Assembly (NCBI GenBank): GCA_021613535.1
Contig: CP075493.1
Location: forward strand, 1,054,001-1,118,000
Length of the DNA stretch: 64,000 nt
DNA from: Adineta vaga
Lineage: Eukaryota; Animalia; Rotifera
Direction: 5' to 3'
Shown here: positions 10,663 through 56,496 of the stretch, one piece after another
Layout of the letters: the number at the start of each line of letters is the position of its first letter
Position numbering within the stretch: the first letter of the stretch is position 1
Made by a program: the position numbers and the translations under genes
The notes under the pieces: model-generated
Databases searched by the model: none
What the model saw: only the letters and a program-made list of their open reading frames with translations
Told to the model about the DNA's origin: nothing

Positions 10663-11202
10663 TATAGAAATGCTTTCTATAAGCAAATTTCAATCTTAAA
10701 AAGTGAATATGTTTGTTCTTCATTTACAAAACACAAAAAAAAAGTGAGAACGAATAAAAGATAAAGAAGTAAATCAAGGACACTGATACAAGATAATAAT
10801 ACAATCTTTATATGATTCATTTGAATATATAACGATGATGATGATCGATCAGTTCTTTACCCAATGATTTGTTCGATGAAAACTATCCTCTTTTAAATCT
10901 CTTTACAAATGATGTCACTATAATATATATATATATATAACAGACATGAACAGATCTGTAGAAAAAAACGATGTTTTATACACATGTTGTTTTTCCTATT
11001 GCATTAGAATACTTTACAGGTAATTGTCTCCGAGGGATCACTCGAACATGACTTATTCAATACTTTGTTTACTTTACCTGTAAATAAAAAAAACTCGGTA
11101 GTGGACGTTAAATCATCAAAATGTTCGTCGTTGGTAAAACGAAATATATAAAATGAGAGAAAAACAAAACAAAAATGTTTTATTTAAAAAAGAAACATAT
11201 TT

Positions 11203-16628: not shown

Positions 16629-17676
16629 TATTGAGAAATTAAACTAGAAGAAAAAAAACAGTTGGTACATTGAATTGACAGACGATTTTTAATTTTAAAA
16701 AAAGGCTTTATCGTTGATGGAACACATTCTTCAATTGTCTTTTATGTCACATATCGTTTTCCTGTAAAGAACACGTTTTGTAACTCATCCATCAGAGAGG
16801 AGGAAAGAAAACGACAATGAAGATAAGAAGTTCGAAGCAAGATATCAAACTAATAAAGGCAAGAAGATAGGAGTATAGAAAGAAGTAAGAATAGGACAAA
16901 TATCATTGCAATAAGAGACATGAACAGTCAGCTAAATTAAATTATAAGTAAAAAAAACAACTAAAATAGACTATAATGAATAGTTCAAAGAAAATGGGGT
17001 GGGTACGATTCATTAATACTGGGTCAATACTCATCTTTATAATAGGATTGAATTTTATCACCGTATATCTATCAATAAGACGACTCTGAATGAGCTATTA
17101 TTTATTGTAATAAAACTACCCGTGTACATGTTTTTCTTTTTGTATTAAAACGTGTTCTTAGTGTAACATTCAGTGTGACCAGACGCATTAAATTAAAAAT
17201 TCAATTACGAACAATTTTTATAACGAAAATAATTGTGAAAGCAAAAACTAATATGATATTCAGTAGAAGTGAACAGAATTTTGTTATCATTAGGTTTAAC
17301 TTAATCAAAAAAAAAAATTTCTCATCCATATAGTTTAGTTTGCACTTGACTTATTCTCAACTTTTATGCGTACAAAATGAATATTTTATCTTTTTTCTTC
17401 CTTTTCTATGTGTCGACGACGTGAGTTACGTCACAGATTCTTTTTCAAAGTTGATAAGAATATCAACGTTTGTCAAAAACGCACATTATTTAATGTTATA
17501 TTGTGCAAATAAATTTACATTTATTTTATATTCCTTCCTCAACATCTCAGTGAGACTTTTTCAAATGACTACAAGAGAAGAGGAAAATGTTAAAAGGATA
17601 TGTATTTATTATAGATTCAATTTATAAATAAAGTCGAAACAACATTTTAAAAAAAAAGATCATTTTGATATAAAAC

Positions 17677-20001: not shown

Positions 20002-21614
20002 TTAATATAACTCAGCACTATTCAAGATAGTAGTATTCGTGTCATATCCACCAGTTGTCAAAATCCTCCCATTAGTTAGTAAAGAGGCTACAAAATTATA
20101 CCGTAAGTGTGTCATGTTTCCAGCAGATGTCCATATTCCTGTTGATGGATCAAACAAGACAATGCTATTTAAACCATCAGTGAATAGTATTTGTCCATTG
20201 GTTAAGAGAGACACTGCATTCAAATATCGTCCATCACCCATATTTCCAGCTGGTGTCCATATGTCTGTCGATGGATCATACATCTCGGCACTATTTGGAG
20301 AAAGACCAAAAACCGCTCTATCTACCACCAGCACTGTTCCATTAGAGAGGACACATGCCAAGTGATCATACCGCGCACTAGTCATATTACTAACAGATGT
20401 CCACATTTCTGTCAATGGATCATATAACTCCGCACTATTTAGAGTACTATTAGTATCATATCCACCAGTCACTAATACTTTTCCATCTCTTAATACAGAT
20501 GCAGCATGTTGACCTCGTTTATTCGTCATATTTCCAGTCGATGTCCAATTATTTGTTGACGGATCATATAACTCAGCGGTATTTAAAATACTACCTAGAC
20601 TATATCCACCAGTTACTAATACTTTTCCATTGTTTAATATAGATACTGTGTGGTAATATCGTTCAGAATTCATGCTACCCGTAAGTGCCCACCTTCCTGT
20701 CGAGATGTCATACAACTCAGCACGATAGAACGAACCACTAACTACTAGTACATTTCCATTATATAAAGCAGATGCTGTATGCGAATATCGTACATAAGTC
20801 ATGTTACCAGTAGGTGTCCAAATGCCTGTTGAGGGATCATATAATTCAGCGCTATTCAAAACACCGCTGGAATTCACACCACCAGCCACTAGCACTTTTC
20901 CATCAGTTAACACAGATGCACTATGCCAGGATCGTGCAGTAGTCATGCTACCAGTTGTAAACCATTCTACAAGTAATATCACAACTGTTATCTTTCCTAT
21001 AGTGATTTAAAAGACTAGAAAAAATCAGATGTGCAGTTTTTGTTCTCCTAGATTTAGAAACTAAATATCGGCCACAGTCTATTTTTCGATTTTCTGTCGA
21101 CTTTAACTGGTTTTATATAGGATTCAACCTCATGTAATACTTGGTTACCTCTTCGACAAAAACGTGTTGCCATCAATGGCAAACATACAGTTTGTGGTGA
21201 ACAACAAGAGTTTACAATGCATATTGATTGACTTGATGCGCAAGTATGGGTAATGTTATCACATGATTCTAAAATCGAACACTGGATGGCAGGTGCACAA
21301 TAACTGACATTATTCAATGTACGATAATCGAAACAAGGAGTGGACGATAGGCGACAAGTAGCACTATTCGATGAACTTATATTACATTGTTGTAAAGAAC
21401 AACTTAATATTGGATTCGAAGCAGAATGCGACGACGAAGTTGATGTAAATTGTACACTCACACCGTTTTCATTACATGAATAACGTGGTGCTTGAGTAGT
21501 TTGGCCTAAATAGATCGCATTGTAAGAATACAGATTGAAAAAGAAGTGACTGTGCTAACCTGATACAGATGAACAGAGAAAAATGAAAGATAAGAAAGTT
21601 GTTTTCCACATCAT
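20002..21614 (-). CDS. Secreted protein with Cys-rich N-terminal domain and Kelch/galactose-oxidase-type beta-propeller, 3 exons
   Basis: Exon 1 21614-21560 is a signal peptide (MMWKTTFLSFIFLCSSVS). Exon 2 21505-21149 is Cys-rich. Exon 3 from ~20966 carries ~7 repeats of R..H.AS.L.NGKVLVTGG...SAELYDP.T..W. Confidence 0.85.
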
Positions 21615-26102: not shown

Positions 26103-27227
26103 ATGGCATGCAGTGTTCGACTACGTCACACAGCATCAAGTGCTCTTGGTTATTTTTGCATAGCCATCTTTTTTCTATTGACAACTCATATCGTCTTTAT
26201 TTATTATACAATAATCATACCAAATGCACTGAAAACACAGAATTATAAATCATTTTTCTTTCATTTAACATTTGGACAATGGATAGCAATGAATATTTAT
26301 TTTAATTATATTATGGCTTGGTGGTCATCACCTGGTCTAGCTCAAGATTATCAACATTTAGCAAGTCAATATTCTGTATGTAAGAAATGTTCAATGCATA
26401 AACCACCTCGAACTCATCATTGTCGTTGGTGTAATTTATGTGTATTGAAATTTGATCATCATTGTCCATGTAAACAATGAATTTTTAAAATGATTTGAAT
26501 AAATTTGTTTAATATTTTTGAATAGGGTTAAATAATTGTGTTGGTTTTTATAATCATCGATATTTCTTTCAATTTTGTTGTTTTATGGCAATTGGATGTT
26601 TCTATGCTGGAACGATGGGTTATCGTGAATATCAATTTGCTGTATTTGGAGAACAATTGTACGTTATTACATATTCATATTTGACAAGTTTAATATTTGT
26701 TTTTGTTTAGATTTTCTTATCAAGATTCATTTTTGCGACCTTTTGCTATTATAAATGCACTTGAAACAATAGATTTTATTACATATTTTGTATTTATTGC
26801 GGCATTTACAACTAGTTTTCTACTAATTATTCTTATATATCGACATGTACGAACGATTAGTCGTGGTATAACATCAGTCGAACGTTTACTTCATAAAGAT
26901 TATGCTCGACAATGTATTGAACATGATCATATGTTTATTAATCCTTACGATTTTGGTTTATTAGAAAATTGGAAACGATTTTTCAATGTTCGTACAATCG
27001 GTGAATTTATTCGATGTGTTCTTTTACCTAATATATATCAACCAAAAGGAAATGGAATAATTTGGCCTGACTGTGATGCTCAAACTTATTTGAAATCAAA
27101 TCGATTTGCTTCAAGATCATCAATGCAGTCTCCTTCTTTTCCTCCCGAAGCTTATATGTATGTTGCTGCTACATATCCAACTCATAAATATCAAACTCCC
27201 GTGCTTTCACGAAAGAAAATACAATAA
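26103..27227 (+). CDS. DHHC palmitoyltransferase (ZDHHC16-like), 3 exons
   Basis: [28 protein letters not shown]|[14 protein letters not shown]. Exons 26103-26469, 26526-26658 and 26711-27227. Also TSVE and NPYDFG..ENW motifs. Confidence 0.92.
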
Positions 27228-27490
27228 ATTAAACAATAATGATAAACTGAATAGGCCATCCGAAGATTCGATGAAATTTGGAGAGAATTATTTCGAAAAA
27301 TATTTATATACATTTTGCAATGATTGAAATACACAAGTAGTACAAATCTCATATGAATAGGAGCGGATTTGTCAAATAAGTAGTTCTAGAAATTGTAAAT
27401 GAATTGAACATTAATCTTCAAAGAAAAAGAAAAAAAAATATTCTATTCAGGTGTAAAATATCTTTATTTGTAATTTCAAATAGATAAAAA

Positions 27491-28377
27491 TCATGTTACA
27501 TGAGAAGAATCATTATTTATACTATTAAAATCAGGAGAAAGATCGAGAAGTTCATCTAATACAAGATGTACAACACCAACTTGTTCACCTGGATGTTTCG
27601 TTTGTCGTTTATCTTTTTCTTGATATGTACGTAAAAATTGTAAAAAACTAAAACAACGATTTGGATCAAATAATCTTGCAGTTAATGGCATATGTTCACG
27701 ATCAGCTGCCCAAACATGAATATTAACATTATGTGCTTTCCATAAACTATTAATTAATGCTTCTTGATTTATATTTTCATTACGAACATAAACCATATCA
27801 ATATCACCAGGATAAATTGTTGATGAAATAAAACTTCCACCAATAATTATTTCACGAACACCAGCATCACGTAATTCATGAAGTGTAACATCAAGATGTT
27901 CAATTAATGTTATTCGATATGAATTTGTTGCAAAACGAGTAATTAATTCATTAAATGTTGTATGATAAATACCAGGTGGAAGACGACCAGATTGATTTAA
28001 ATCTGGTATTCCTTCTTGTCGATCACGAATAAGTTCTTCACGAACTGATTGACTAATTGGAGTTGAAAGCCAAGCATTACTTCGTTCAGTTAATGAAGGA
28101 GCAATAAAAGCACTAAAAGCATGTGTCCATTCTGTTCCTTTGAACGTTTGTTCAGCATGAGGACCTTTTGATAGATTTAAATCCCAAAGAGCAGCAAGAA
28201 ATTCATCTTCATAACCGGATAAATTTGGAATTAAATCATAAATGCTGATTGAATCTAAATATATTTACATTGATTAAATAAATGAAAAAAGATTTCCTCG
28301 AACTTATTACTCGACGATTTCATTTGATCTTGTTTTTCAATATCAATTGTTTGATTATTAGAGAAGGAATTGGACAT
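27491..28377 (-). CDS. Bacterial-type Pol-beta-superfamily nucleotidyltransferase (DUF6932-like), copy A, 2 exons
   Basis: Exon 1 28377-28311, 56-nt intron 28310-28255, exon 2 28254-27491. Reads GIPDLNQSGRLPPGIYHTTFNELITRF...LRDAGVREIIIGGSFISSTIYPGDIDMV...SFLQFL...VGVVHL. Confidence 0.8.
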
Positions 28378-28524
28378 TATTTTTTACTAAATCAAATGTT
28401 AAAGGTCAATATGATCGAAGATATTTTGAAAATGAAAAAGAAAATTTCGTTCGACATTAAGTGAGACAATTGAGAATGACCGTTACAGTAGACTGAGTTT
28501 GTTCTTTTCTCTTTCTCTTCATCA
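27575..28524. repeat. Arm A of a ~0.95-kb inverted duplication (partner 44672-45620)
   Basis: The reverse complement matches from 44672 onward. An identical 60-aa shadow ORF appears at 28282..28464(+) and 44732..44914(-). Confidence 0.95.
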
Positions 28525-28727
28525 ATGAAACGAAAAAGAAAATCGACAAAGACATACATGAACATTCGATAATTGAACGACAATCACATCGTGACAGTGT
28601 ACATAAGAACAAGAGAATTATCTTCTATTCATATCAATTAATAAGATATGTTTTTTTTTATTTCTTATTTTACATATACATAACAATACGAAAGAAATTC
28701 AATAATAAATCGATTGAAAAAGTATTA

Positions 28728-29764
28728 TTAAGTTATTGGTACTACATGATTGACAGGTATATGTACCATTTGATTCCAATTCATCCTTAAGACTACATAA
28801 AGAAATTGTTGACGAAATCTTTTCGATACACATATATAAATATAAAATGGATTCTAAAATTCAATAAAAACAAAAGCAAAGATAGAAAAATATATTTTCA
28901 ATCAAATCAAATTAAACTAATACTTACTGATAAATGCATATAATAAAGAATAATAGTTATATTCGAACTAAATTGAAGATATGTTTGAACAATTGGATTA
29001 CTATTTATATCTTTGTTTAAGGAAAGAACACTTGTAATACCATAGGGAAAAAGAAGAAAGAAATTAACAGCAACTTGTACTAAAACCATGGCCGTTATTT
29101 GTTGATCAAATTGTCGTCGAACAATTGGTACAGTATAATAAGCTAATTGTCGAACATTACGATAAGCGAGTATTCCAAAAAGAACAGTTATACATATTGG
29201 TAGAAGTACTAAAAATATAAGTAAAACAGCATAAGTACGATATTGTAAATAGATTGAATTTGTTATAGAACAGGTAATTTTGTTTGTTGTAGGAGTTATA
29301 ACATGATCATAGAATAGAAAATAGGGAATTCCATGTAAAATCCAAATGAAAAAGAATGTGAGAGTTACACGTTGAACTATTTTAATAGTACATAATTGTC
29401 GTAAGCATTGATAACGACAAGTTGCACAATATTGATCAATAGTTGCTAAACAAAAACATGTCAATGAAAAAACTGTACAAAATTGAGAAAAGAAAAATCG
29501 AAATTTGCAATAGAATACAGAAAGATCAGTTCCATCACTTCCATATATACCGATCATAATACGTGATAATACAACAGTACATAATTGACCAATATTTAAA
29601 AAAGACATTATAATTAAATAGAATACACATGAACTTTGACGAAATGTTCGAAGAGAAATAAATATAATTGTATTAAATAATTCTCCTATCAAACCAGTAA
29701 TTAAAACAATAATACCACCATAGATAAGTATTTGTTTACCAATCAAATCCAATGATAATGACAT
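28728..29764 (-). CDS. Orphan rhodopsin-like GPCR, 2 exons
   Basis: ORF 28907..29764 plus intron 28927-28854. The last exon reads NPFYIYICVSKRFRQQ to a TAA at 28730-28728. ATIDQY motif. Confidence 0.88.
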
Positions 29765-30210
29765 GAAGATTTTCTAGAATCAACTTTCTCGTAAGCTGAA
29801 AATAACTGTTTGAAAGAAAAGTGCATTTTATATCACGAGATTCAACATAATCATTGTTATCGATGGATAATCACATTTCTTTATATTTGCGAAATTATGC
29901 GAGTGTTTTTTTATCATGTTTTTTTAAGAAACACAATACGAGTACAACTATTTTGAGCATAATTAATGATAAGGTGGAAATTTTTTTCCGTAAACATAAT
30001 ATATTATCAACAGCATTGATAAATGATAGGAATCATTCAACTTTATAAAAGAAAGGACATATAAACAAGAAATACAATAAGTCTTTTGACATAAAAATTG
30101 ATTATGAGATTAAGAAGTGACAAAATGCACAAAACAGCTTACAGTGAAACGGATTACGAACAATATAAACACTCGACGCACTGATACAATCTATTGAATA
30201 TTTGTTCATT

Positions 30211-31221
30211 TTATATCTGAGTTGTTCGTTGTTGTTGTTGCCTTCCTGCGGTTAACGTTAGTATAGCGGATTTTTGTTGATGACTTTGATTATTCTTCGG
30301 TATTTTTCGAATTGATTTTAGTAGAAATTGTTTAACTTCATTTCGATATGCTTTTGATGTCATTAGATGAATGTAGAATGTCGTATTATAATTTAAATAC
30401 AAAAGTAATGACATAGTGATGAAATTAATAAATGATTCGATCTGTTTTTGTTCAGCACTTTTACTTGAAGCCATATTTGATGTCACTTGCGAATAAATAG
30501 TCACTGGTGGATAGGCTAATGTACAAATGATATAGACAATTATTTCGATTAGAACAAGTTTTATAAAGGAAATATCTCGTCTATTCAAACGATTAGAAGT
30601 ATTAACTGATTGAATTTGTACATGTAAATGATTCAAATTTTTTACAAGTAATATACCGAATGAAAGCATTAAGACAATCGGTATAAAACCAGTAAATATT
30701 GCAATATAAAATCCAAAAATCTGTCCATAGATTCCATAAACACCACATCGTCCATTTTCAATACTTTCCCATATAAGTAAATGAACAGAAGCTACACACC
30801 AGAATAATGTAACAATTCCAATTGAACGATAGGCAATCTGTGGTCGACTTAAAGCCCGAATGTGTACACGTCGATTACATAATACATATCGATCAATACA
30901 TAGAAGTACAAGTGTATAACGAAAAGACATTGAACAAGTATGAATAATATATCCACGAATACGACATAGAATTAATGAATTACTAACCATATCAAAATGA
31001 TCTAATGCATAAACAGTTGGAACAATTGCCCAATTTGAACCCATTAATGAAAAATAAGATATTGCAATAAGATAGATCGAACAGGAACTCGTTCGATTTC
31101 TTTTTTGTGCTTGAATTATAATAGTAAGTATATTACCAAGATTACCTAATGTTAAAATAATCGGTAATGCATAACGAGTAATCATTTTTTGTAGAAGAAC
31201 GAGGGTAGTAATTGTTGACAT
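30211..31221 (-). CDS. Orphan rhodopsin-like GPCR
   Basis: ATG at 31221, GNLGN, LCIDRY, FYIHLMTSKAYR and 7 TM segments. Confidence 0.88.
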   Translation of the reverse strand: MSTITTLVLLQKMITRYALPIILTLGNLGNILTIIIQAQKRNRTSSCSIYLIAISYFSLMGSNWAIVPTVYALDHFDMVSNSLILCRIRGYIIHTCSMSFRYTLVLLCIDRYVLCNRRVHIRALSRPQIAYRSIGIVTLFWCVASVHLLIWESIENGRCGVYGIYGQIFGFYIAIFTGFIPIVLMLSFGILLVKNLNHLHVQIQSVNTSNRLNRRDISFIKLVLIEIIVYIICTLAYPPVTIYSQVTSNMASSKSAEQKQIESFINFITMSLLLYLNYNTTFYIHLMTSKAYRNEVKQFLLKSIRKIPKNNQSHQQKSAILTLTAGRQQQQRTTQI

Positions 31222-32115
31222 GATATACTCTACGAATAGGTAGATTAACAAGAAGAATGAGAGATGTAGTTAAAGATCGTAAAAATAAGTTTAGAAAATA
31301 TAGGAAACTATTGGAGAATTTGCAATGATTTTATGAATTACGATATATTTTGAATATTTTAATTCTTTGAACTATGTCAGATTATGAAATGAGAAGATTA
31401 ACTTTTTGAAAACCTTTTTAATACTTTTTTCATGAAAACTAATATCTACCCATGCTCGAAGCATCTTCTTATTGATTCTAAACTACGTCATTCATTTTCA
31501 TATAAAAATACCTTGATGAAATTGCGACATATTTTTTCACCGATATCTTCATCAATAATGATGGTAAAAGGGTATTTTAAGTAAAGATTATGTACGTCAT
31601 CAAAGAAAAAAATAAGATAGATGCATTAATGGAATTGAATGTGCGTTATACCTATTCAGTACGATTCATACATCCAAAGTTATCTTTGCTGAAAGGTTTA
31701 ATTAAATCTCGACAAAGAACAATCTATTGAACTTACGTTTTCCGCTTTTACTCTGTTAATTAAAAAAAACGCTATTCAGACGTCGCACAAATGAGTATAT
31801 TTTTCATAAAAAACTAAAATAATGTAGTTTGTCTAGGTCGAACGGCTCGAGTACAAAGTTAATTGTTTTTCGAGAAATATTGTTAATAGATACTACGTAT
31901 ATTACTTGGGGCATGGCCTATTAACATAGAGCGATTATCAACATCTACACTCATACACTAGATTAATCGGTTTACGAGTGATCTCTTTGCTAACCATACA
32001 ATCAGCACAAAATTCTGTTTGATCATTTTTATTTTTTTTTAAAAATACATTCACTGAAAAAAGTATTTATGTGTATTTAATTGTTGTAAATTTGAAGAAA
32101 TTTCAATCAATTCTA

Positions 32116-32489
32116 TTAATAATATCCTCTATGTCCATGTCCATGTCCATGCCCATGTCCATATGGCATTCCTCCTCCGAATCCGCTTTGCATACCACCC
32201 CCATATCCGCTTTGCATGCCACCACCATATCCTTGTTGCATGCCTCCCCCGAATCCATTTTGCATGCCACCCATAAATCCATTTTGCATGCCTCCATTTG
32301 GATTTCCACCGATCATGTTATCAAGCATCATACCCATAGGACCTTAAATTAATAGAAATAAAATCTCGAAAAGAAAATTCTCCTTAATAACTTACTATGT
32401 AATCCTCCTGGAACGAAACGATTAATAGCCCAATCTGAAGCAAATTCTGCTATTCCACCAGAAAATTGATTACCACCACCACCAAACAT
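32116..32489 (-). CDS. Small Gly/Met/Gln-rich repeat protein with a His-Gly tail, 2 exons
   Basis: Exon 1 32489-32396 (MFGGGGNQFSGGIAEFASDWAINRFVPGGLH), intron 32395-32343. Exon 2 has five GGMQ[NQS]G[FY][MG] 8-aa repeats and ends GHGHGHGHGHRGYY. Confidence 0.8.
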
Positions 32490-33380
32490 TTTTGTTGAAT
32501 AGAATAATTTTATAAGAAATGAATAAATGACATGAAAACGTCGATCGTATTTATATGGTCATTTTGATTTAATATTGTTCGATAAATAAAAAAAACCATT
32601 AAATTATTTCCTAATAGAAAACAGTGACGCTCGTATTTTGTTTTTCTACGTCATATCAATCAAGGCATGACATGAATCAATAAAATCATTGTAATTTATT
32701 GCATCATTTAAAAAACATGACATAAACATATTTTTTTCCTTCTTATATTTATTTATTAATTACAAAATAAGAAATTTCTTCCTACAAATTTGTTTTACAT
32801 TATAAAATAAATTACCCACACTTGCTCTATTTTCTCTATCATTATAAATAAACCATAAATTGGTATTCCGTGTTACTTGACAAATTTTTACGTGAAAAAG
32901 TAAAATACTTTTAGTAGTTTAATGACTTGTCTCACTCTCAAATCGACAATTTATCATTACTGAATCAGTTTATAGTTTAAGAAAATGAATCGCATGTAAC
33001 ACAATGAATTACTTTATATTCTAACTGAAATTTAATCATTCTATCAATCGTTATAGACAACTATCAAAATCGAGGTTTGAGAATTGCTATTGAAATGACC
33101 ATATGCCTAACACGAATTATCATTTGTCGTGAATGATGTTGCTAATCTCCTTTCAATGTTACCATTCGAGATTTTCATAAATCTTGAGGGTGTGGATGTG
33201 AGTGTCTCTTGGTGTATTCAGACCCACACCCTCATCAATATTAGCATAGGAAACTTAGTCTTATACATGGGATCATATTCCTCGTTCAACATTCTCTCTC
33301 TCAATAAAAGTGAAAAAAAACTTCGATTTTTTGTAGTAATTGTACACACTTACACCCACACTTTCTTATACTGATTTATT

Positions 33381-33800
33381 CTATGAAGGACGAAGTAAAT
33401 ATGTTCGTATTGCAGTAATCAAATAATAATGATTAGGAGAAAGTTCAACAAAAGCAATGTGATATGGACGTTTCCAATAGATGGTTGTTGGACGTCGATC
33501 GATTGGAACTATTTTAAAGATAAGACCACTTTCGGGTGGAGCATTTTTTCTTACTTCAATAAAATGTATTCGCATCGATTGTGGTAAAATAATATCTTTA
33601 TCAAAAGATGAAATCATCTTATTTTCATAGAATTCACATCGTTCTCCAGTAAAGCCTTGCTTACAAATGCATTCAAATGTTCTATTAGATGCAACATTTT
33701 CATTGATAGGTACGCATTGACCATTATTTTGACAAATGCTACCAGACTGACATATATGATCACAGAGCAAACAACGAGAACCCCATCGATCGTACTTTGG
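33381..33800 (-). pseudogene. Isolated EGF-containing fragment of the LDLa/EGF receptor family
   Basis: CQNNGQCVP...CICKQGFTGERCE followed by IHFIEV..., with no start or terminal exons. Confidence 0.6.
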
Positions 33801-34066
33801 CTGTCGATACTCAGTGTGATGGTATTATGACATCAGTGCTTTAAATTACAGATATACAATACTGTAGTTTTCCTTGAATGAATGTTTTACAAATATAATG
33901 ATACCGACCAACTTGAGAAATTATCGCTTATTCAAGCAACATATGTCGAAAGAAAGGATTGAATTTTTATCTTTCACCTTATCACATAGGATGTCAAAGT
34001 GGAGATATTCTGTTTCTCTACTAGATAAATTAAACTCATGTGCACATAGAAGAAATATTTCATATT

Positions 34067-35293
34067 ATGCAACGAAAAACTTGTCTATGTATCTTTTATT
34101 ACATTCTTTTTATTGTTTATTCGCAATTCTTTTCAAATGTTGGTCAAGTATTCGAAAATCATGATGAGGATTTTATTGAATTAACTCCCGAGCGAATCGA
34201 TTATTTTCGTAAAATACAATCGGAAGATATATTCAAATTGAAGAATGGTAAAGAAATCGAACGAGGATGCGTTCAATCCTGTTGTTGGTCAAAGCGGAAA
34301 CAAATGAAATTCTATTCCGGAGAAGAAAAAGATCGTTTACCAACATATTTCGATCGTTTAAGTTCGATTGATATGAAATTATTAGCTGATTTACATTATG
34401 GAAATTTAACAATTCCAAATGAAATTTCTTTAGAAAAATTAACAACAAATATTTTACCATGTTTACAAAATTCGACAATTATTTTTGTTGATACAACGAA
34501 TTTAAAAGATTTCTTTGATAAATTTCATCAAGAAATTCTTATTAATTATATTTTAATTACAGGTGATTCAGATCTTTCAGCTCCTTTACATTTAATTTCT
34601 TCACATTATCATTTACTTGATGATATTTTTCAAGGTAAAACTCGAATTATTCATTGGTTTGCAATGAATTGTGATTTTGGAAATGAATCTAAATGGATCA
34701 AATCAAATATTTTCTCTTGTATTCCACAAGGAATTAGTCAATGGAATAATCAACGTTATCGAATGCAATTAATTAGTAAAAAAACGAATATTATATCTCA
34801 AACACAAATGAAAACAAATGATTATTGGATATTTACATCATTTCAAATTGTTGGTAGATTTCAATATCGAAAATATCGTCAACCCTTATGGTATTTATCA
34901 TGTTATGGTCGATTAAAATCTCTTTCCAAATGTTTTTATGGGACAAAATCGAAAGATCAATTAGAATATTATAAAAATCTTCGTCAAAGTAAATTTGTAT
35001 TTTCACCACCGGGTGTTGGAATGGATTGTTATCGAACATGGGAAATACTTTATCTTGGTTCAATACCAATTGTTTTAAATTCGACACTTAATTCAATTTA
35101 TGAACAACTTCCGATTTTAATTGTTAACAATTTTGAAGAAATTCAAGAGGAATTTTTGAAAAATATTTATAAGAAAATGATTAAACAAACATTTGATTAT
35201 CGACGATTGTATAAAGGTTATTGGCAAAATCGAATTCATTCGTATAAAAATTCATCGGAATTTATTCAATTTCATTATACAATCAATAAATAA
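34067..35293 (+). CDS. Exostosin/GT47-like glycosyltransferase, type II membrane, intronless
   Basis: N-terminal TM, YILITGDSD, and SKFVFSPPGVGMDCYRTWEILYLGSIPIV (the SPxGxGxDCxRxWEAL motif). Confidence 0.8.
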   Translation: MQRKTCLCIFYYILFIVYSQFFSNVGQVFENHDEDFIELTPERIDYFRKIQSEDIFKLKNGKEIERGCVQSCCWSKRKQMKFYSGEEKDRLPTYFDRLSSIDMKLLADLHYGNLTIPNEISLEKLTTNILPCLQNSTIIFVDTTNLKDFFDKFHQEILINYILITGDSDLSAPLHLISSHYHLLDDIFQGKTRIIHWFAMNCDFGNESKWIKSNIFSCIPQGISQWNNQRYRMQLISKKTNIISQTQMKTNDYWIFTSFQIVGRFQYRKYRQPLWYLSCYGRLKSLSKCFYGTKSKDQLEYYKNLRQSKFVFSPPGVGMDCYRTWEILYLGSIPIVLNSTLNSIYEQLPILIVNNFEEIQEEFLKNIYKKMIKQTFDYRRLYKGYWQNRIHSYKNSSEFIQFHYTINK

Positions 35294-35774
35294 TGTTCTG
35301 TCTTAGAAATAAAAGGTACTGAATGTCTATTTTACTGTTAAAGCGAATTGGGATTATTCAGGAAATAATATAGGGAGTAATGGATCACATACATTTGCAA
35401 GTTGTTGTTCATGAATGTTTAAGTCATCCATTATGTGTTGCATTTACCTTTAATCTATATGATACGTGTTTTATTAAGAGTTCAACTGGAAATAGAGGAG
35501 GTAGATTTTTGAATTTCATTGGAGCAGCTCGTTAAAAATCGAATGATTGATGAAAAACTTTTATCATTGGCATAATCAAATTGTTTTTTAAGTATTTTTT
35601 TCGTTCTTGCATTTACTTCTTCATAAGATTGTTATTTTAAAGAACAGAACAGAGAAAAATAATTGTGCGTTTCATACACGTGTGAGTGAAAAAGGAAGTG
35701 TTTGTTTGAAAATTACTTTTCTATTCATATATTCATTGCAAAAAACATACAATCACGAAATTGATAACACGTCA

Positions 35775-38112
35775 ATGGCAGACACATCTTTTCTCATTCT
35801 ATCCACCGAACTTCATTATCATATATTTGACTATCTCGATATCAATACTATTCTACGTTCAATTCGATGTGTTTGTACACGATTCTATGCAATGGTTAAC
35901 AATTACCATCGATTTAAGCTTGATTTGACATCAATCTCAGAAACCGATTTGGAACTCATTTCTCGTCTTGTCCCATCAAAACATATAGTTTCATTGACGT
36001 TGCGTAATAACATTCACAGTTCATTCGACATCGATCAATTTACACGACTTCAATCATTAACTCTCCGCGATATCAATGGCACTGATTTAGAACGAATTTT
36101 ACAACATATTTCTACTTGTTCTTTAATATCACTTTCAATCTATTTCGATAAAAAAGATTTGAAAAATAATACAATAATATCTCTTTTCTCATCGGTCATT
36201 GCTCTACCTACTCTTCGAAAATTACATGTTGAAGAAATTGATTACTTTATGGAGCACATATTATTTTCAATTCAAGTTGCTATAAAACATCTAACAATTG
36301 ATACATGTACCAATACACAATATTGTACTATGCTTCACTATTGGACTTCTTTACAAACATTAATAATCAATAAATTTACTATGAATAGTACAGGCAGTAT
36401 GATTTTACCATCATCTTCTTCTTCAACATGTTATTCACAATTGATTTCTTTGAGCATCAATGATTGTGAATTATCAATGCAGAATTTTGAAATTCTTTTT
36501 TCATTGACACCTTCACTAAACTACCTTAAGATAATTTCGACTTGTAGACCGATGTTTGACAATGTATTCTATGGTTCTTCTTGGGAAAAATTCATTCGAG
36601 TTAAACTTCATCAATTAAAACAATTCGAATTTCTATTCTGCTATTATTTAAGAAACTGTGATACTAATGATGAAGTCACTGATTGTCCGATTTTAATCTC
36701 TGAATTTCAATCCCCATTCTGGCTCAATGAAAAACATTGGTTTGTTACTTCTGACTTCGTTATAGAAAAACATCGATCTTTAATAAGACTTTATACCATG
36801 TCGATTGATATTTCCAATTTGGAATCATTAATTATATTTCGAACATCATCAACAGATAATACTCGTCACTTAACTATTCTATTAAATGATCGTACGAAAA
36901 GTTATACATCAAAACCATTAACTACACTCGATGTCAGCAGCTATCATATCTTAGACAGAGGAGCGAAACATCTGGCTATTGCTTTACAGAATAACAAAGT
37001 AATGATCATTTTTAGCCACATATAAATATACTTATTTTTCACACAGACGATTACTGAATTGTGTCTTCAAGGAAATCGACTCGATTCGTGGGACTTATCA
37101 CATTTAGCTCATTCATTAACATACAACACGGTAATTTTCTATCTTTATTTCATTGATCTATATGTTATTTCTATAGACACTTACTACGCTTCGACTTGGA
37201 GGAAATTTATCCGAAAAAGAGGGAACAAATTATCTAGCTGATGCACTACGAGAAAACAGAGTAATTTTTCTCTCTCACTCTCATATGCATCTTCATTTCT
37301 CTTACAGACACTTACCACACTCGAACTTGAAAATAATCGAATTTATGCATCAGGAGCACGATATTTGTCTGATGCATTACGAAAAAATACAGTTTGCTGT
37401 TCATTATATTTTCAATGGTCATCTATTTATCATCGGTTTTCATATAGACACTCACCACATTAGTACTCTCGGAAAATGTAATTAGTGATAAAGGTGCACA
37501 ATATTTAGCAACGGCATTACAAGACAATATGGTGACCATTATTTTCATTTAAACCTTTTCGTATACACATTCACTTTGTATCAGTAGACTCTTATCACTT
37601 TGGACCTTACGTACAATCAAATAACCGATGATGGGATTCAACATCTAGCAATGGCATTGCAACGTAACACGGTGAATTTCATTCCCTTTCGACTCTCTCA
37701 TATTTGTCTTCACTTTTGCACATATATAGACACTTACTACACTTGAACTTGGATCTAATAAAATCAAAGTTGCAGGAGCACAATATCTGGCTTGTGCATT
37801 ACAATCGAATAACGTGATTAGCAATATCTTCTCGTCTGTTATAGCTATATTTTCATGTTGTATACAGACACTTACAACACTTGACCTTGGATCTAATCAA
37901 ATTCGAAACGAAGGAGCACAACACTTAATTGATGTACTAGAAAATAATACAGTAGGGTTATTCTCTTTTGATTTTTTACATTTATATTTACTTTTTATAC
38001 ATAGTCACTGATTATTCTCAGTCTTGGTGATAATCAAATAAATACAGTTATGATAGTACATATAGCTGGTTTACTTCGAAGAAATAAACAACTATTATGT
38101 TCCAAAATCTAA
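35775..38112 (+). CDS. F-box protein with C-terminal RNI-like LRRs, 9 exons
   Basis: F-box LSTELHYHIFDYLD. Exon 1 35775-36998. Seven 84-nt phase-0 exons start at 37047, 37177, 37308, 37448, 37588, 37730 and 37868, each TLTTLxLxxNxIxxxGAxxLAxALxxN. Last exon 38005-38112. Confidence 0.88.
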
Positions 38113-38654
38113 TATGTATGATCATCAATGATTTACTAAAGAGAAATCGGACATTGTTACTCATTTGTCTAAATAAATTACTATTATTAAAATCACTAAC
38201 ATAGTTCTATAATCTACATGATGAGTGGGTGTGAGGAATAGATAGATCACTTACGCGCACCCTTATTTCAAAACAATAGAATCTGAAAAAGAAGCATGTG
38301 GTGTGAATCAAAGTAAAGTGACACTCGACACTCTCGAAAATGAACCGATACATCTTGATAACATTTAAAGAAACAATGTTTATCTTTATTTATGTTTGTT
38401 AAGAGAAAGATAAAAATAAAAAATATGAACGAACATCTGTTGTTTGATTGACGCTTTCTTTCTGATCGAATATTTTCATGATGATTGTATATACAGATGA
38501 ACTGATATGTTTTTCCTCTTTCTTCTCGTCCATTTCATCTCTATATCTATTCTATTTTTGAACGCATTCTATTCGTTTAATTACAAACAATGATATTCTT
38601 TCCTTTTCATTAACAAAATTTCTCTTCAAGACATTTGATTTAGAAGAGGAAAAA

Positions 38655-44506
<5,852 letters not shown>

Positions 44507-44671
44507 AATAAATCATTTCTTTGTCATTTGTTTCTTTTCAAATAAAAAAAACATAGAATTTGGAAAGATAACATTTCATTCGTACGATCCTTTAACAAAG
44601 AAATGTTAGATTGTAATCTGTGAATTCAACGTTATGTTCACACCCATTGGTCACACCCACATCCTTATACG

Positions 44672-45620
44672 TGATGAAGAGAAAGAGAAAAGAACAAACT
44701 CAGTCTACTGTAACGGTCATTCTCAATTGTCTCACTTAATGTCGAACGAAATTTTCTTTTTCATTTTCAAAATATCTTCGATCATATTGACCTTTAACAT
44801 TTGATTTAGTAAAAAATAATGTCCAATTCCTTCTCTAATAATCAAACAATTGATATTGAAAAACAAGATCAAATGAAATCGTCGAGTAATAAGTTCGAGG
44901 AAATCTTTTTTCATTTATTTAATCAATGTAAATATATTTAGATTCAACCAACATCCATGATTTAATTCCAAATTTATCTGGTTTTGAAGATAAACTACTG
45001 AATGTTCTTTGGGATTTAACTTTATCAAAAGGTCCTCATGCTGAACAAACGTTCAAAGGAACAGAATGGACACATGCTTTTAGTGCTTTTATTGCTCCTT
45101 CATTAACTGAACGAAGTAATGCTTGGCTTTCAACTCCAATTAGTCAATCAGTTCGTGAAGAACTTATTCGTGATCGACAAGAAGGAATACCAGATTTAAA
45201 TCAATCTGGTCGTCTTCCACCTGGTATTTATCATACAACATTTAATGAATTAATCACTCGTTTTGCAACAAATTCTTATCGAATAACATTAATTGAACAT
45301 CTTGATGTTACACTTCATGAATTACGTGATGCTGGTGTTCGTGAAATAATTATTGGTGGAAGTTTTATTTCATCAACAATTTATCCTGGTGATATTGATA
45401 TGGTTTATGTTCGTAATGGAAATATAAATCAAGAAGCATTAATTAATAGTTTATGGAAAGCACATAATGTTAATATTCATGTTTGGGCAGCTGATCGTGA
45501 ACATATGCCATTAACTGCAAGATTATTTGATCCAAATCGTTGTTTTAGTTTTTTACAATTTTTACGTACATATCAAGAAAAAGATAAACGACAAACGAAA
45601 TTTCCACGTGAACAAGTTGG
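44672..45620. repeat. Arm B of the inverted duplication (partner 27575-28524)
   Basis: tgatgaagagaaagagaaaagaacaaact at 44672 is the reverse complement of the sequence ending at 28524. Confidence 0.95.
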
Positions 45621-45687
45621 AGTTATACATCTTTCATTAGATGAACTTTCGGATTTTACTCTTAATGTTAAAACTCTAAACAAGTAG
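44819..45687 (+). CDS. Bacterial-type Pol-beta-superfamily nucleotidyltransferase (DUF6932-like), copy B, 2 exons
   Basis: ATG at 44819, exon 1 to 44885, intron 44886-44941 (phase 1), exon 2 open to TAG at 45687. GGSF-x8-DID motif. Confidence 0.8.
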
Positions 45688-45907
45688 CTTTATTTATAGG
45701 AAGTATATAGGAATGTTCGTATTTTTGTTTTTGTAGCATTTTGTTTCTAAAAGACACATGAAAAGAACGAGAGTAACAAACGATGTGACTGTACATAGAT
45801 TTTTCAATAAAACATTAAACTACCCTTTTGCGTAGAATAAAAATTTACTTTTCTCAGTAAATCAATATTTTTCCGAATATTATGATCAAAATATACGAAT
45901 GTATTCA

Positions 45908-48320
45908 TCAGAAAAAAGGTTTTGATCGAAATTGAATTGGAATTTCAGTAGCATTACCAGCAATCTCAGAAAAATATTTCTCTGCTTTTTCACCACTCAA
46001 TACATGTTGTGTTCCCCATTGTCGTTCGAGATCTTCTTTCTTAAAATCTTGTTTACTTTTCCATGTTGCACGTTGCATAAAAAAGTCATGATCCATTCGT
46101 GCAAGATGGATTAAAATCAAATTCGGATCTCTAAATTATAAACAAGCATTTTGATTGATAAAATCAAACTAAGAATCATAACTTACTGTTGAGTATCTTC
46201 TTTACAAGTATGAAAGCCTACGCTCCAGTGTAATGATTTACTTGTTAAGAGAGGTTTATTATAATCATTATCTGTAAACCAAAAACGTCTTTGTCGAATG
46301 ATCGATTCACTTAGATTAAGTTTCGGTTCTAACGTAACATTATGAAATAGATTATAACCTTTGGTACGAACAGTTTCATATTTGGTTTTTCTGATGTAAT
46401 CCATTAGACCTAACGGATATTTAAGTGGATCAGGTATAATAATTTCATCGATTTCACAAAATAAGACATATTTATAGCCAAGTAGAAGTAAATCACGAGT
46501 TTTAGCTTCAACAGTTTCGATAAGCCACAAATGATCAAAATATTTTTCGGAATGAACACGTTGAACATTAACAGTTAGATTCCATGTTGATCTATCATTA
46601 CTATCATTGTCCAATATATAAATATCCTTATCAGCAAAATATCGTCGATAATATCGTAACCAAATTGGTAAATATCCTGCTTCATTACGACTTATAGTAA
46701 GAACTGCATATGCATTTATCGATGTATTTACTCGATTTTGACGGCTAGGTTTAAATTGAAGTGTACGTTGCTGTGCTTGAGTCCATAGTTGAACCCAGAT
46801 TTCCATTGCTTGGGCTAATCGATCAAAATATACATGCAAATGAAGAAGTTGTGATCGGATTAGGTGAGCTAATTCTAAATAACAAGCTTCTGGGGTTTTA
46901 GCAGATGGTGAAAAACGTACACGTTGAAAGAATGCAATAATATCCTCTTGCCAAAAGAATCCCATATATTCTTTTTTCAGATTAGTAAATGGATTCGAAG
47001 CTTTATTATGATGAATATAGGGTGCTCCCGTTTTCACTCCAAAACCAAGATGATCTGCTACAACTTTACTAGCCCATCCAGCGAACATATCATCATATCG
47101 TCCCCAAGGCATACCAACACCCATGAGACCTTGCATAAAAGCGACACCAATCAATTTACGATTGAATGCTACATTCATTGAACACATGGGATAAAGAACA
47201 CCAGCTGGTACTGTAATAGTTATGTCAGCTAAAAGTCTATTTCGTTCATCAATTTTAAGCAGTTGAGTTGGTGCATCATAGTCTGGAGCATTAAGCCAAA
47301 TACCATGAGAGATGGCTGTAGGTACACCTCGTCGTAAACTAAATGGATAACCACGAACAAAATCTGAGCCCTCTCGATACGGATCATATAAAGTATTGAA
47401 AAAATAGGGTGTTGAATTGGTGACAAGATTTTGAATATGTCTCATTATGGCATCGATTTGTGCACCGCTTGCATTTCGAGCTGGTAAACAATCATCATCG
47501 ATCGAATAGATAAATGTTTTACTTGAAACGAGAAAACCAAAATTTCGAATCGATGCATCTTGTGAACTAATAATCCATGCTCGATGTTTACCTAATATTG
47601 ATTCAATATCTCGTCGATTGTACAATTCATAATCAGCCCATTCTGGTATTTTCAATAATTTATCTGGATCACCATCTTGGATGATAATCAGATGAAAATT
47701 TTCAAAGAATACTTTCCAAGATTCGAGAAAATCAAGATCCCGAATTGATGGTATGACAATATCGACTTCCTGATAATAATCGGCAATATCGAAAGGACGT
47801 GATTGACGATTAAAATGAAACTGATCAATACATTGAGGATGAACGAAATCTGATGTTGTTGGATTCCATCCACATTCTTTCTCCAGTTTCTCAACAGCTA
47901 AAAAGGTCATAAACTATTCATTCTTTTTTAAAGTAAGGGTTTATACTTACTTGATCGAAAAATATATAGATCGCTGATTTTTAATTCTGTCGGTTAAAAA
48001 AGAACTGTTTTATACATACCCAATGCAGCCCCATAGTACGAAAGAGCATCACTATTAACACCACCGTATTTCGTTGTTAGAAGTGAACGAATAGCTGCAG
48101 GTATACCAGGTCCAGTAGTACCTGGTATACTGTTAACATCTTTAAAAGAATCCAAAGTTGAAGAGGTAGACAGTTTCTTCAAATAATCAGGTACAGAATG
48201 TGTTTCGACAATAAATGGTCCAGTAAACGTACGGTAGTAGTTTCTAGATTGTAGAAAGGTATACAATATGAATACACAGACTAAACCGATAATAAAGTAA
48301 TAAATCAATCGTTTGTACAT
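45908..48320 (-). CDS. Type II membrane RGP/UDP-arabinopyranose mutase (GT75) domain fused to a GT2/GT-A-like domain
   Basis: TM anchor [23 protein letters not shown] motifs [51 protein letters not shown] and [13 protein letters not shown]. Second domain [21 protein letters not shown] and CEIDEII. Introns at ~48019-47898 and 46186-46131. Confidence 0.9.
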
Positions 48321-49467: not shown

Positions 49468-49859
49468 TGTCTACAGTGGGGCTCGCAGTGTAGATGTATA
49501 TCCTGTTGTTGAGATATTGTATCTTTCGCATACTACAATAATTCACTACCGTGGTTTCCCTCAGGAACATCGGAAAAATTCACCTTCGAATTTTGATTTG
49601 TAACTTTGAGTTTATTTTCTGTTTCTATTGAAACGTGCGATTAAGACAACTTAAGGTCACTTACAGAAGTTGGTATTGATACTCTTATGTACACCTAGGA
49701 TCATCCAACAAAGTTTCAGAACGATATTCGACGATGAGTTTTTTCGATATTCCTGAGGAAGATCATAGCAGTGAATTATTTTAATATGCTAAAGATACAA
49801 TATCTCAACAATAACAACAACAGGGTATCCATCTACACTGTGAGCCCTACTTGTAGACA
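49468..49859. mobile_element. MITE/foldback element with ~115-bp imperfect terminal inverted repeats
   Basis: tgtctacagtggggctcgcagtgtagatg...gagatattgtatcttt...cctcaggaacatcggaaaaa pairs with ttttcgatattcctgagg...aaagatacaatatctc...catctacactgtgagccctacttgtagaca. Confidence 0.85.
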
Positions 49860-51984: not shown

Positions 51985-52964
51985 TAATAATCAAAATAAA
52001 CAATTTTTTGAAAACGTTTTTTTCTTTTACAAAATATCTCTTTAGAAATCGATCCAATGAATATTAAGTTGCTTTCGAATAAGACAATTGAAGACAAACT
52101 TTACCAAATATTAAATTTGAAAAGATATATATATAAATGAGGATGAAAAAAAAGTTAGTCTGTATGATAAATTTTTTTAATATAGAAGAAAAAGTTATCA
52201 TAAAAAAAACTCATGAATATTTAGTGCATTTTAATATCCGGATTCTTTACAGAAATATTCAAGGATATACGTCATCCGTAGATTATGAGAACTATAAATT
52301 ACGTTTATTTAATATTTTTTCTTCGTTCTAAGACATCACGACTTTTACTCAAATATACGATTCTAATAAACTACTTATATTCACGAAAATACGGTTTCTT
52401 ACTACATGAATCTTAGAGTAAGACTAAAAATATCAAGTTTTAGTAAAAATCTCGAAGATGGGCAACTCAAACTATTTTTTTTTGACTTGAATCAATCTAT
52501 TAGACACATCAGATTATAATTTTGATTTAGCTGCACAAAATATTGATGATTATCTGTTATAATCTGAAACTTTTCACGAGAAAGTCAAATCAGAAGTAAA
52601 ATATGAAAATTAGACCTGATTATGTTCTTGATGCATCTATTTTTTGTAGAATTAGTACTAAATATCGATGTCGAAACGAAAATGAAGAGATACATTGATA
52701 TACTGCGCAAAAATATTAATGAATGGAAGTTATATAGCAGTTTGTAATATGAAACATATCAAATAAAGTTAAAAAAACGTTGACTTGACTTGCCCGTTTC
52801 TATGGAAACTATATACATTTGTTCTTATTGAAAAACACGACAGCGAGTGTTTGATAAAAGAAAAGATAACCTTTTTTTTTTGACTAACTTGAATTGAATT
52901 AAAAAGAAAGAAAGATTATTTGAGTTGTGCATCATATTTTGTTTTTCTCTCCTTTTTTCAAACA

Positions 52965-53537
52965 ATGACAAATTCAGATACGATATATCAAATGAAAAAA
53001 GAAAATCCTATCAATTTAATTGGTACTAAAGCTATTCTACGTTCATGGCGATTTGAAGACAAATCATCATTACTTCAACATGCAAATAATTACAAAATTG
53101 CAATTAATTTACGAAATCAATTTCCTTATCCGTATACAGAGCAGAATGCTGATGAATGGCTTGATTTTGTTAGCAATTTAACTTCAACTAGCAATCTATA
53201 TTTAGCTATTGAAGTGAAGAATCAAGCAGTGGGTAGTATGGCAATTACATTTGGTAAAGATGTACACCGTTGTACAGCTGAATTGGGTTATTGGTTGGGT
53301 GAATCGTATTGGAATTGTGGAATAATGAGTGAAGCAGTGATATTGCTCAGAAATTATGCATTTGATCATTTTCCAAATTTACAACGATTGTATGCTGAAC
53401 CTTTTAGTACAAATTTGGGTTCGATGAAAGTTTTAGAAAAAGCTCAATTTGAATTTGAAGGACGATTAAGAAAATCAGTAATTAATCGAGATGGAAAAAT
53501 TTTAGATCAACATTTATATGCTTTTATCAGAAAATGA
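52965..53537 (+). CDS. GNAT N-acetyltransferase, RimJ/RimL-type, intronless
   Basis: LRNQFPYPYTEQNADEW, AELGYWLGESYWNCGIMSEAV and NLGSMKVLEKAQFEFEG. Confidence 0.9.
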   Translation: MTNSDTIYQMKKENPINLIGTKAILRSWRFEDKSSLLQHANNYKIAINLRNQFPYPYTEQNADEWLDFVSNLTSTSNLYLAIEVKNQAVGSMAITFGKDVHRCTAELGYWLGESYWNCGIMSEAVILLRNYAFDHFPNLQRLYAEPFSTNLGSMKVLEKAQFEFEGRLRKSVINRDGKILDQHLYAFIRK

Positions 53538-55638: not shown

Positions 55639-56496
55639 GTCTGACATAATCGACAACTGAAGTAGTGTCTTTAGCAACTTGTTTTTATGAATGATGTTTC
55701 AGTTTCTATAACTAAAATATAATGAATTGTTCTGATTTGCTTTTAGAAAACTTTTCAAAAAAACACATCAAGATTTTATCATTTTCTAAAGTGGAGATAT
55801 GTGAATATCGATTGTTCTTTCGACAGTCATCGTAAACGATTCTTTGATTATATGTAAGAACATGATCATTTGAAGTCATACAATTTTTTTCAACCTGAAG
55901 AGAGTGATGCTTTTGATGGATTTAATGTCGAAATCATGCAAAACATGATAACGTTTTTTATATTATGAAAATCAGGAGTACATTCTCCTGTATACTTACA
56001 GTCGAGATTTTATTGCCGCTATATAATACTTTTATCAGAGATCAATAAAAGATTAGATTTCAGCTGATTATATAAAGTTACACAAATGCTGGTTATATTA
56101 CAGATTTTTCAAATTAAGCTCTACCGGTAAGTTCAATAATGCCCTTTTCTGACCATCAATATGTAGACAAGAATACAGGCGATGAGATGTAGTTTCAGAA
56201 TTTTGTAGGTTTCATGAACATTATGCAAACTTTTACAATTTTCATTTGAACGTATGTATTCTTGAAACTTTAAAGAATAAAAATATGTATTGATGCAGAT
56301 TTTATTCAAAAATTGATAAACTATTACTTGAGATTCTATTCTATTTTTTTTGACTCGTCATTTATCCATGAGCTGTCAAGTGTATCACTGATTATATAGC
56401 TATTAAGAATGTTTTCTTTATAACTTTGTAATATAACTAGATTTAGTGTCGATATTATCAAATCAATTCAATATACGGCTAACTCATTCATTGGCT

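Follow-up and report, generated by a model that had tools for sequence, protein, structure and literature searches.

A spliced, duplicated DUF6932 gene of the bdelloid rotifer Adineta vaga, likely acquired from bacteria and predicted to encode a minimal Pol-beta nucleotidyltransferase

We analysed a 64,000-nucleotide stretch of contig CP075493.1 of Adineta vaga (assembly GCA_021613535.1, positions 1,054,001 to 1,118,000; hereafter the window, in whose coordinates all positions are given) that carries two copies of a gene for a putative nucleotidyltransferase (NTase). Copy A lies on the minus strand (exon 1, 28311..28377; intron, 28255..28310; exon 2, 27491..28254) and copy B on the plus strand (exon 1, 44819..44885; intron, 44886..44941; exon 2, 44942..45687), oriented outward from one another, with products of 276 and 270 amino acids. 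They correspond to the NCBI A. vaga entries I4U23_000243 and I4U23_000250, the second of which NCBI annotates from a methionine further downstream. Exon 1 (Met1 to codon 23) is identical in the two copies and is polar and probably disordered; the model of copy A is the same as that of NCBI (P0155). The 56-nt, phase-1 GT-AG intron is also identical, and the NCBI protein P0001 has the same junction for copy B. Exon 2 encodes a conserved helical N-terminal extension (about residues 24 to 104) followed by the NTase domain, as supported by the Pfam, modelling, fold-search and dN/dS results below, and in copy B it differs from copy A mainly in codons 24 to 52 and from codon 246 onward. Self-comparison shows an ungapped inverted repeat of 1,012 bp with 96.3% identity (27513-28524 versus 44672-45683) and 16,147 bp between its arms; the runner-up inverted repeat within 27000-46200 is just 49 nt long. 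The repeat spans nearly the whole of exon 2, the intron, exon 1, and 147 identical bp upstream (28378..28524, minus strand, for copy A; 44672..44818, plus strand, for copy B) that would hold the 5' untranslated region and a likely promoter. A first-pass annotation of this DNA had described two outward-pointing paralogs sharing a 56-nt phase-1 intron, and the coordinates and the repeat agree with it. Its remark that the open reading frame (ORF) track showed only the last third of each gene also holds: the first in-frame methionine of exon 2 is M176, and an ATG-based track would give the last 101 of 276 residues.

Reading frame alone leaves several introns (six frame-compatible candidates for copy A and four for copy B), so the choice of the 56-nt intron was decided by RNA contigs. 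A joint at 28254>28311, skipping 56 nt bounded by CT..AC on the plus strand, is present in contigs of three of the four runs compared (X9 and X12, from one sample, and X11, from another), one of which has 107 nt on the shorter side of the joint. Two of these runs also carry a GT-AG joint in the neighbouring gene (26658>26711), indicating that they behave as RNA. The longest intron-bridging contig is A-type in the 5' portion of exon 2, and we infer splicing of copy B from its identical intron and the NCBI model. On copy B, runs X1, X2, X3, and X5 cover exon 2 in part, with no contig across the intron, and the metatranscriptome run X6 yields a single unspliced 239-nt piece. Contigs of run X11 include both A-type and B-type 5' parts of exon 2, both 3' ends occur in RNA contigs, each continuing into its own flank, and upstream of copy A the contigs extend to about 28420. 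The proposed intron is thus real, and the gene is spliced and expressed in two variants. Run X11 also contains, over 28311-28420, a further exon-1 variant with seven substitutions and one gap, possibly an allele or a third copy. No expression entry under infection or stress could be tied to either copy in the part of PMC11258130 that was available, whose supplements use other identifiers; similarly, no row around the DHHC neighbour in the available supplement of PMC12220480 was assignable to either copy, as its FUN_ numbers do not equal NCBI locus numbers.

The 37 differences between the copies are unevenly placed along the repeat, with none in the first 276 bp, 15 in the next 75, three in the next 578, and 19 in the final 83 bp. 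By a sum-of-squared-gaps statistic, the observed clumping was never reached in 100,000 shuffles (longest-gap p 0.00024). Local dS (synonymous divergence) in successive segments is 0.33 (codons 24 to 52), 0.016 (codons 53 to 245), and 0.20. Diverged codons next to an intron without a single difference are what patchwise overwriting of an older duplicate would leave, and the copies likely go back to an older local inverted duplication, parts of which gene conversion has since made alike; such a pair could also stem from an inversion with staggered breaks. The spacer between them (28525..44671, 16,147 bp) holds unrelated genes: two seven-transmembrane receptors, an RXYLT1/exostosin-like glycosyltransferase, and an F-box/leucine-rich-repeat gene, along with an ABC transporter, an EGF-like fragment, and a Gly/Met-rich repeat ORF, labelled by reading their translations. 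The last of these, at 32023-32558 on the minus strand, consists of 24-bp tandem repeats. No transposase was recognised among the spacer ORFs read by eye. We considered and rejected the 16-kb block as a mobile element because the repeat arms are the genes themselves and the interior holds ordinary genes; the block is likely a bystander.

By profile comparison, the two rotifer proteins are members of DUF6932 (PF22014; E 2e-20 and 3.2e-20; 74.1 and 73.4 bits against a curated cut-off of 27), as the first-pass annotation had suggested. This is the sole Pfam family matched at E up to 0.1, in agreement with the earlier view that the protein is no ordinary metazoan NTase. The match covers profile positions 1 to 130 of 142, and the domain ends near residue 258. 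All 30 Atlas matches are DUF6932 clusters, at a recognition value (2281) slightly below the 2300 mark, and NCBIfam gave no match. Like other members, the rotifer proteins have the N-terminal LPPG-H element, the G-S, and the DxD; they differ from them in the animal host, the spliceosomal intron, the 104-aa N-terminal extension, and the histidine discussed below. PDB sequence-search matches to a PH domain (E 0.0012) and to SH2 domains were rejected as chance-level. Searches of phages found no match and those of viral contigs no relative, and there was no viral fold match at E up to 0.001.

An AlphaFold2 model built from 113 sequences reached a mean predicted local distance difference test score (pLDDT) of 81.1 and a predicted TM score of 0.74, where an initial model from six sequences had reached a pLDDT of only 57.6. 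The best four matches to this model among 48,161 solved chains are minimal NTases (MNTs): 1no5 (Z 5.6; root-mean-square deviation [rmsd] 3.8; 97 residues aligned), 1wot (Z 5.5), the MNT of 8xeh (Z 5.5), and 2rff (Z 5.3), all at rmsd 3.2 to 3.9 over 92 to 97 residues with 11 to 14% identity. Most of the 50 fold rows listed are enzymes of the Pol-beta superfamily, and CCA enzymes, poly(A) polymerases, aminoglycoside NTases, and CdnE stand below the MNTs. In addition, the residues G161-G162-S163-x9-D173-I-D175 fit the signature hG[GS]x9-13DhD, with H202 in the third strand; G-S and DxD are conserved in 4/4 full-length proteins of the group that we label "rotifer-like" (with four close relatives outside A. 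vaga) and in at least 90% of the 113 rows. The predicted fold is closest to that of a minimal Pol-beta NTase, as had been proposed from the signature. Minimal NTases (MntA of HEPN-MNT, HI0073, 1wot, and 2rff) are the best structural counterparts, with about 95 residues aligned, a small core, and G-S-x9-DxD, but they share little sequence identity with the rotifer protein, and no HEPN family was seen among the 13 other window ORFs in the Pfam scan, which covered neither short nor spliced genes. cGAS, OAS, the cGAS/DncV-like NTases (CD-NTases), and the terminal nucleotidyltransferases (TENTs) have the superfamily fold and signature in common with the rotifer protein; unlike them, it matches no Mab-21, OAS, or CD-NTase profile (Pfam at E up to 0.1, NCBIfam, and PADLOC), and they rank lower by structure and carry a C-terminal lobe, which it lacks.

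To place the domain in its bacterial setting, we compared 20 distinct DUF6932 loci, made up of four of five plasmid matches and 16 genome loci after duplicates were merged and seven weak loci (L028-L034) without a match to the domain hidden Markov model were dropped. At 17 of the 20 (L002, L003, L005-L012, L017, L019-L021, and L023-L025), which are not independent and three of which served to build the partner profile, the DUF6932 gene is directly followed, usually with an overlap, by a gene that encodes a helical hairpin and an Xre-type helix-turn-helix (HTH) domain. The hosts of the paired loci are cyanobacterial plasmids, Armatimonas, Deinococcales, and Solirubrobacterales, and the rotifer protein aligns with the HTH-paired members in hhalign (99.7%, E 5e-27). 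Two Deinococcales bins hold five and six DUF6932 matches each. The partner matches HTH_3, with weak matches to antitoxin models below cut-off, and three partners have a further domain with a HELAH motif, which we take to be an IrrE/ImmA-like peptidase. In one exception, on an Aliarcobacter plasmid, DUF6932 is fused to an alpha/beta hydrolase (L004:2995-4170) and followed by an unknown 411-aa gene. The L008 pair is predicted to bind (0.87 against 0.30 for the best control; contact agreement at least 94%, partner pLDDT at least 90), at a mark attained by 51 of 78 solved and 2 of 108 mismatched pairs, and this model supports binding of the enzyme to its HTH partner.

The order of enzyme upstream and Xre-HTH downstream is, we assume, the HigBA-type arrangement of type II toxin-antitoxin modules. 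The bacterial relatives resemble such modules in gene order, overlap, HTH_3 partner, and predicted binding, but their enzyme is an NTase rather than an RNase, and the likeness concerns the bacterial relatives, not the rotifer locus. In the bacterial pair, the NTase likely takes the place of the toxin in a type II toxin-antitoxin-like module. In HEPN-MNT pairs, the upstream MNTs are antitoxins according to the available text of PMC3710099, and the DUF6932 enzyme could accordingly modify its regulator instead; unlike HEPN-MNT pairs, most pairs with bacterial DUF6932 show no second evident enzyme. Among the NTase toxin domains listed in the accessible part of PMC3482391, only RelA/SpoT-like ones appear. 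In PADLOC, the only candidate for the rotifer protein is component A of PDC-M63 (E 1.3e-9), a partial and distant match over 78 aa to what is a candidate system only; the main text of the PADLOC discovery preprint makes no mention of M63. The toxin- or defence-like bacterial context suggested earlier is supported by the pairing, the PDC-M63A match, and the predicted binding. No HTH partner gene was found in the spacer or the rest of the window, where tblastn with three bacterial partners gave a best E of 0.30.

The third catalytic carboxylate is missing from the rotifer protein. In an alignment of 144 domains, from which rows without the G-S-DxD pattern, rows shorter than 120 aa, and near-duplicates were excluded, H202, placed by alignment and strand position, aligns with a Glu or Asp in 78 homologs (Glu 39, Asp 39, His 31, other 35). 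Glu occupies this site in 13 of 13 HTH-paired genes. The first-pass annotation was right that this acid is absent and suspected an altered chemistry; the site was probably inherited rather than changed in the rotifer, judging by sequence, because 27 of the 31 His rows fall outside the rotifer-like group and include a protein from a Thermoleophilia genome bin (P0034). The rotifer-like clade has a support of 99 in a quick tree of 128 rows. In a careful search on 55 chosen rows with the His column removed, whose bootstrap had not fully settled, it has 98/98 and groups with nine mostly His-type rows at 84/86. The loop from DxD to the third site is 26 aa long in the four rotifer-like rows, 24 to 29 in nine His-type rows, and 33 to 36 in 13 HTH-paired rows, so that the rotifer loop is 7 to 10 aa shorter than that of HTH-paired members; this agrees with the His-type grouping. 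The rotifer gene likely descends from a partner-free, His-type branch and not from the HTH-paired, toxin-antitoxin-like one. A comparison of the predicted antitoxin interface with the rest of the domain did not discriminate, the interface of the rotifer protein being no more eroded than the remainder of its domain (identity 0.19 versus 0.30; in paired genes, 0.41 versus 0.51).

Many homologs are longer, with the domain behind an unrelated N-terminal region, and five of the nine rows nearest the rotifer group start with a signal-peptide-like stretch. The rotifer protein has none by a hydropathy heuristic (maximum 0.87, versus 2.3 to 3.3 in five homologs). Signal-peptide-like or long unrelated N-termini were noted in the metagenomic proteins P0007, P0009, P0010, P0019, P0175, P0039, P0078, P0086, P0117, P0126, and P0127, layouts that look effector-like or polymorphic-toxin-like.

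Close relatives of the gene are few. Of 423 candidates, five were retained, namely the A. vaga cluster, a pair of proteins (71% and 63% identity) with the same N-terminal extension, and two short proteins, the cluster of one of which includes a Chamaesiphon entry. An exhaustive search of 1.84 billion representatives gave 676 matches, of which one had E up to 1e-30; two further fragments, at 62 to 66%, came from this search. The gene was not found in the annotated proteomes of A. steineri and the named Rotaria species (search window 139 to 443 aa), and within the limits of annotation it seems absent there, since a neighbouring RGP gene used as a control readily retrieves A. steineri, Rotaria sp. 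Silwood1 and 2, and R. socialis. Its distribution among bdelloids therefore appears patchy. One locus, L001, encodes the relative P0002 without an intron and retains the rotifer-specific extension; compared with it, the NTase domain has a dN/dS of 0.187 and the extension one of 0.211, at a dS close to 1. The GC content at third codon positions (GC3) of the NTase genes, 0.06 to 0.07, is at the low end of the range of 14 window ORFs (0.06 to 0.34). These values point to a gene that is old in the lineage, adapted in composition, and held by selection, as the earlier suggestion of domestication implied. In P0017, Leu-Gly stands in register with the intron acceptor, and just behind this point P0003 begins; this is a weak hint that relatives share the intron position.

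Every named non-rotifer homolog that we found is bacterial, and A. vaga is the only named eukaryote among the homologs recovered. Together with the host-gene surroundings, the intron, the expression, the purifying selection, and the non-metazoan identity of the nearest named homologs, this indicates that the gene was likely acquired from bacteria by horizontal transfer. The available text of PMC8494291 gives 2,679 candidate foreign genes in A. vaga, about 8.3% of its genes, and some foreign genes are induced by a fungal pathogen (available text of PMC11258130), so transfer into bdelloids is itself ordinary. The new gene is like others of this kind in foreign origin, intron, and host-like composition, but we found no published account of this family. 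The nearest His-type group was not met in the GTDB samples: a query with P0007 returned none of 269 candidates, a search with alignment A7 gave only HTH-paired forms, and of 301 sampled genomes of the class of G002, 12 had matches, none recognisably of that group.

How the protein might work is a more tentative matter. The reading towards which we lean, at somewhat less than even confidence, is a cytosolic enzyme that binds Mg-NTP (nucleoside triphosphate) through G-S and DxD and moves the nucleoside monophosphate (NMP) to a protein side chain, as MNTs do. In such a mechanism, G162-S163 and D173/D175 would hold the triphosphate and one metal, H202 would take the place of the third carboxylate as a base or metal ligand, and the conserved helical N-terminal extension would provide the substrate-binding or restraining role that a partner usually supplies to minimal NTases. 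Several points weigh against this account and the history behind it. Protein nucleotidylation is drawn by analogy with MNTs, and a His in place of the third acid could mean lost catalysis. The fold scores (Z 5.3 to 5.6) are middling; Foldseek gave no match at E up to 0.001, although its list consists of Pol-beta and MNT chains. The model is of low confidence over residues 1 to 57 of the exon-2 frame, and no likeness of the extension was found either to the HTH partner (0.3%) or to any Atlas cluster. On the phylogenetic side, the His-type grouping has a support of only 84/86, and a forced grouping of rotifer and HTH-paired genes is not rejected (approximately unbiased test, p 0.298). P0002, P0003, P0006, and P0017 are at most putative rotifer proteins, and we infer both the donor and the bacterial origin of the nine nearest non-rotifer rows.

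The third acid of Pol-beta enzymes normally binds the catalytic metal, and its replacement by His, set against the acidic residue of the HTH-paired genes and of more than half of the alignment, would also suit a pseudo-enzyme or nucleotide sensor that binds NTP-Mg without transfer and serves as a binding or scaffold module. We regard this as unlikely, if not strongly so: the His is kept together with G-S and DxD in the rotifer-like group and in 27 other rows, which suggests a retained, different chemistry and not decay, and the NCBI annotation, if nothing more, lists one of the His-type proteins as having a nucleotidyltransferase domain. The first-pass annotation's proposal of an immune function or of signal synthesis in the rotifer found no support. 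In that case the protein would be a domesticated toxin that serves to fight pathogens or to bring about self-arrest, or it would synthesise cyclic or oligo-nucleotides. The toxin-antitoxin-like pairs of the bacterial family, the predicted binding of the L008 pair, the PDC-M63A match, and the signal-peptide-like N-termini of the nearest rows speak for it, as does the raised expression of foreign genes in bdelloids against a fungus (in the available text of PMC11258130). However, the rotifer protein itself has no signal-peptide-like stretch, it is of MNT size and not of cGAS or CD-NTase size, and CD-NTases fall below the MNTs in the fold ranking (CdnE, Z 3.5 to 3.6). Further, in one E. coli strain the deletion of PDC-M63AB brought no defence activity to light (accessible part of 10.1101/2024.12.20.629700), and the word "nucleotidyltransferase" does not occur in the main text of PMC11258130. 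We consider the immune role unlikely on this evidence.

A transferase with a detoxifying action on a small molecule, like that of the aminoglycoside and lincosamide NTases, or one that modifies an RNA end is to our mind quite unlikely. The fold list does contain AAD(9), ANT(4'), LinB, CCA-adding enzymes, and terminal uridylyltransferases (TUTases) at Z 3.3 to 4.0, and infection of bdelloids induces foreign-derived RNA-repair genes (PMC11258130, text available), but these matches rank under the MNTs, the rotifer protein is without their C-terminal helical or RNA-binding domains, and the bacterial contexts observed for DUF6932 are HTH-paired operons, not resistance cassettes. An indirect origin, compatible with the other explanations, would have brought the gene in through another microbial eukaryote, or would make the close relatives and the His-type proteins a eukaryotic branch. 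The closest relatives (63 to 71% identity) and the nine nearest other rows have no recorded taxon, as this would allow, but A. vaga is the sole named eukaryote among the homologs, the His-type P0034 comes from a Thermoleophilia bin, and L001 keeps the extension as an ortholog would; we hold this origin to be improbable. Finally, near-identical copies and the A/B mosaics among the RNA contigs raise the question of contamination by bacterial DNA or of a single gene assembled twice. This is largely refuted and in our estimate extremely improbable, given the spliceosomal intron, a GC3 inside the window range, and RNA contigs that hold both 5' variants and both 3' ends with their own flanks; mosaics are expected when near-identical copies go through contig assembly.

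The window is rich in other foreign-looking genes. At 9331-10689 (minus strand) lies a one-frame fusion of nitrile hydratase subunits, beta then alpha, which the available supplement of PMC12220480 flags as horizontally transferred with protist best matches. An RGP/UDP-arabinopyranose mutase fused to a GT2-like domain (46183-47913, minus) has plant and algal relatives and orthologs across bdelloids. Also foreign-looking are an Ap4A phosphorylase, another nucleotide-handling protein (2035-2640, minus), a kelch repeat protein (20002-21006, minus), a GNAT acetyltransferase (52893-53537, plus), and an FkbM-like methyltransferase (15540-16643, minus). A 717-aa open frame without a family match (5179-7332, minus) has the highest GC3 of the 14 ORFs (0.34). 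A 392-bp imperfect self-inverted repeat (49468-49859; 71%, E 4e-44) is possibly like a miniature inverted-repeat transposable element, and a gene for a Cys-rich repeat protein with a Ser/Thr-rich tail (56437-59047, plus) has a 486-bp internal duplication (94%, one gap) that breaks the frame near 57450-57657.

Full-text literature searches, with subscription journals mostly outside their coverage, found no paper on DUF6932 or PF22014; the listings for horizontally acquired NTases of bdelloids showed, by title or the start of the abstract, nothing on this gene, and those for NTase toxins and domesticated toxins nothing on this family. What is new here is an animal member of an undescribed family, the likely toxin-antitoxin context of that family, and a conserved His-type active site. 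A more far-reaching proposal, which we offer as speculation with a small chance of being right, is that DUF6932 is an undescribed class of NTase toxin in two forms, one with Glu/Asp that a hairpin-HTH antitoxin keeps in check and one with His that bacteria export as a stand-alone effector; some bdelloids would have captured the His form, swapped its signal peptide for a self-restraining helical extension, and put it to use as an inducible nucleotidylating switch in defence or stress. Should the protein lack activity or serve a minor housekeeping function, its gene merely joins the other foreign genes of A. vaga, about 2,700 in all. In either case, an unstudied family gains two leads: a likely new type of toxin-antitoxin module with an NTase as the toxin, and an animal copy that is under selection without a partner. 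An active His-type enzyme would broaden the chemistry of Pol-beta enzymes and be a further case of a bacterial conflict enzyme adopted by an animal, apart from the cGAS/OAS line, and if the toxin-class proposal is true, the rotifer protein would be the first animal member of that class and a Pol-beta enzyme that catalyses with histidine.

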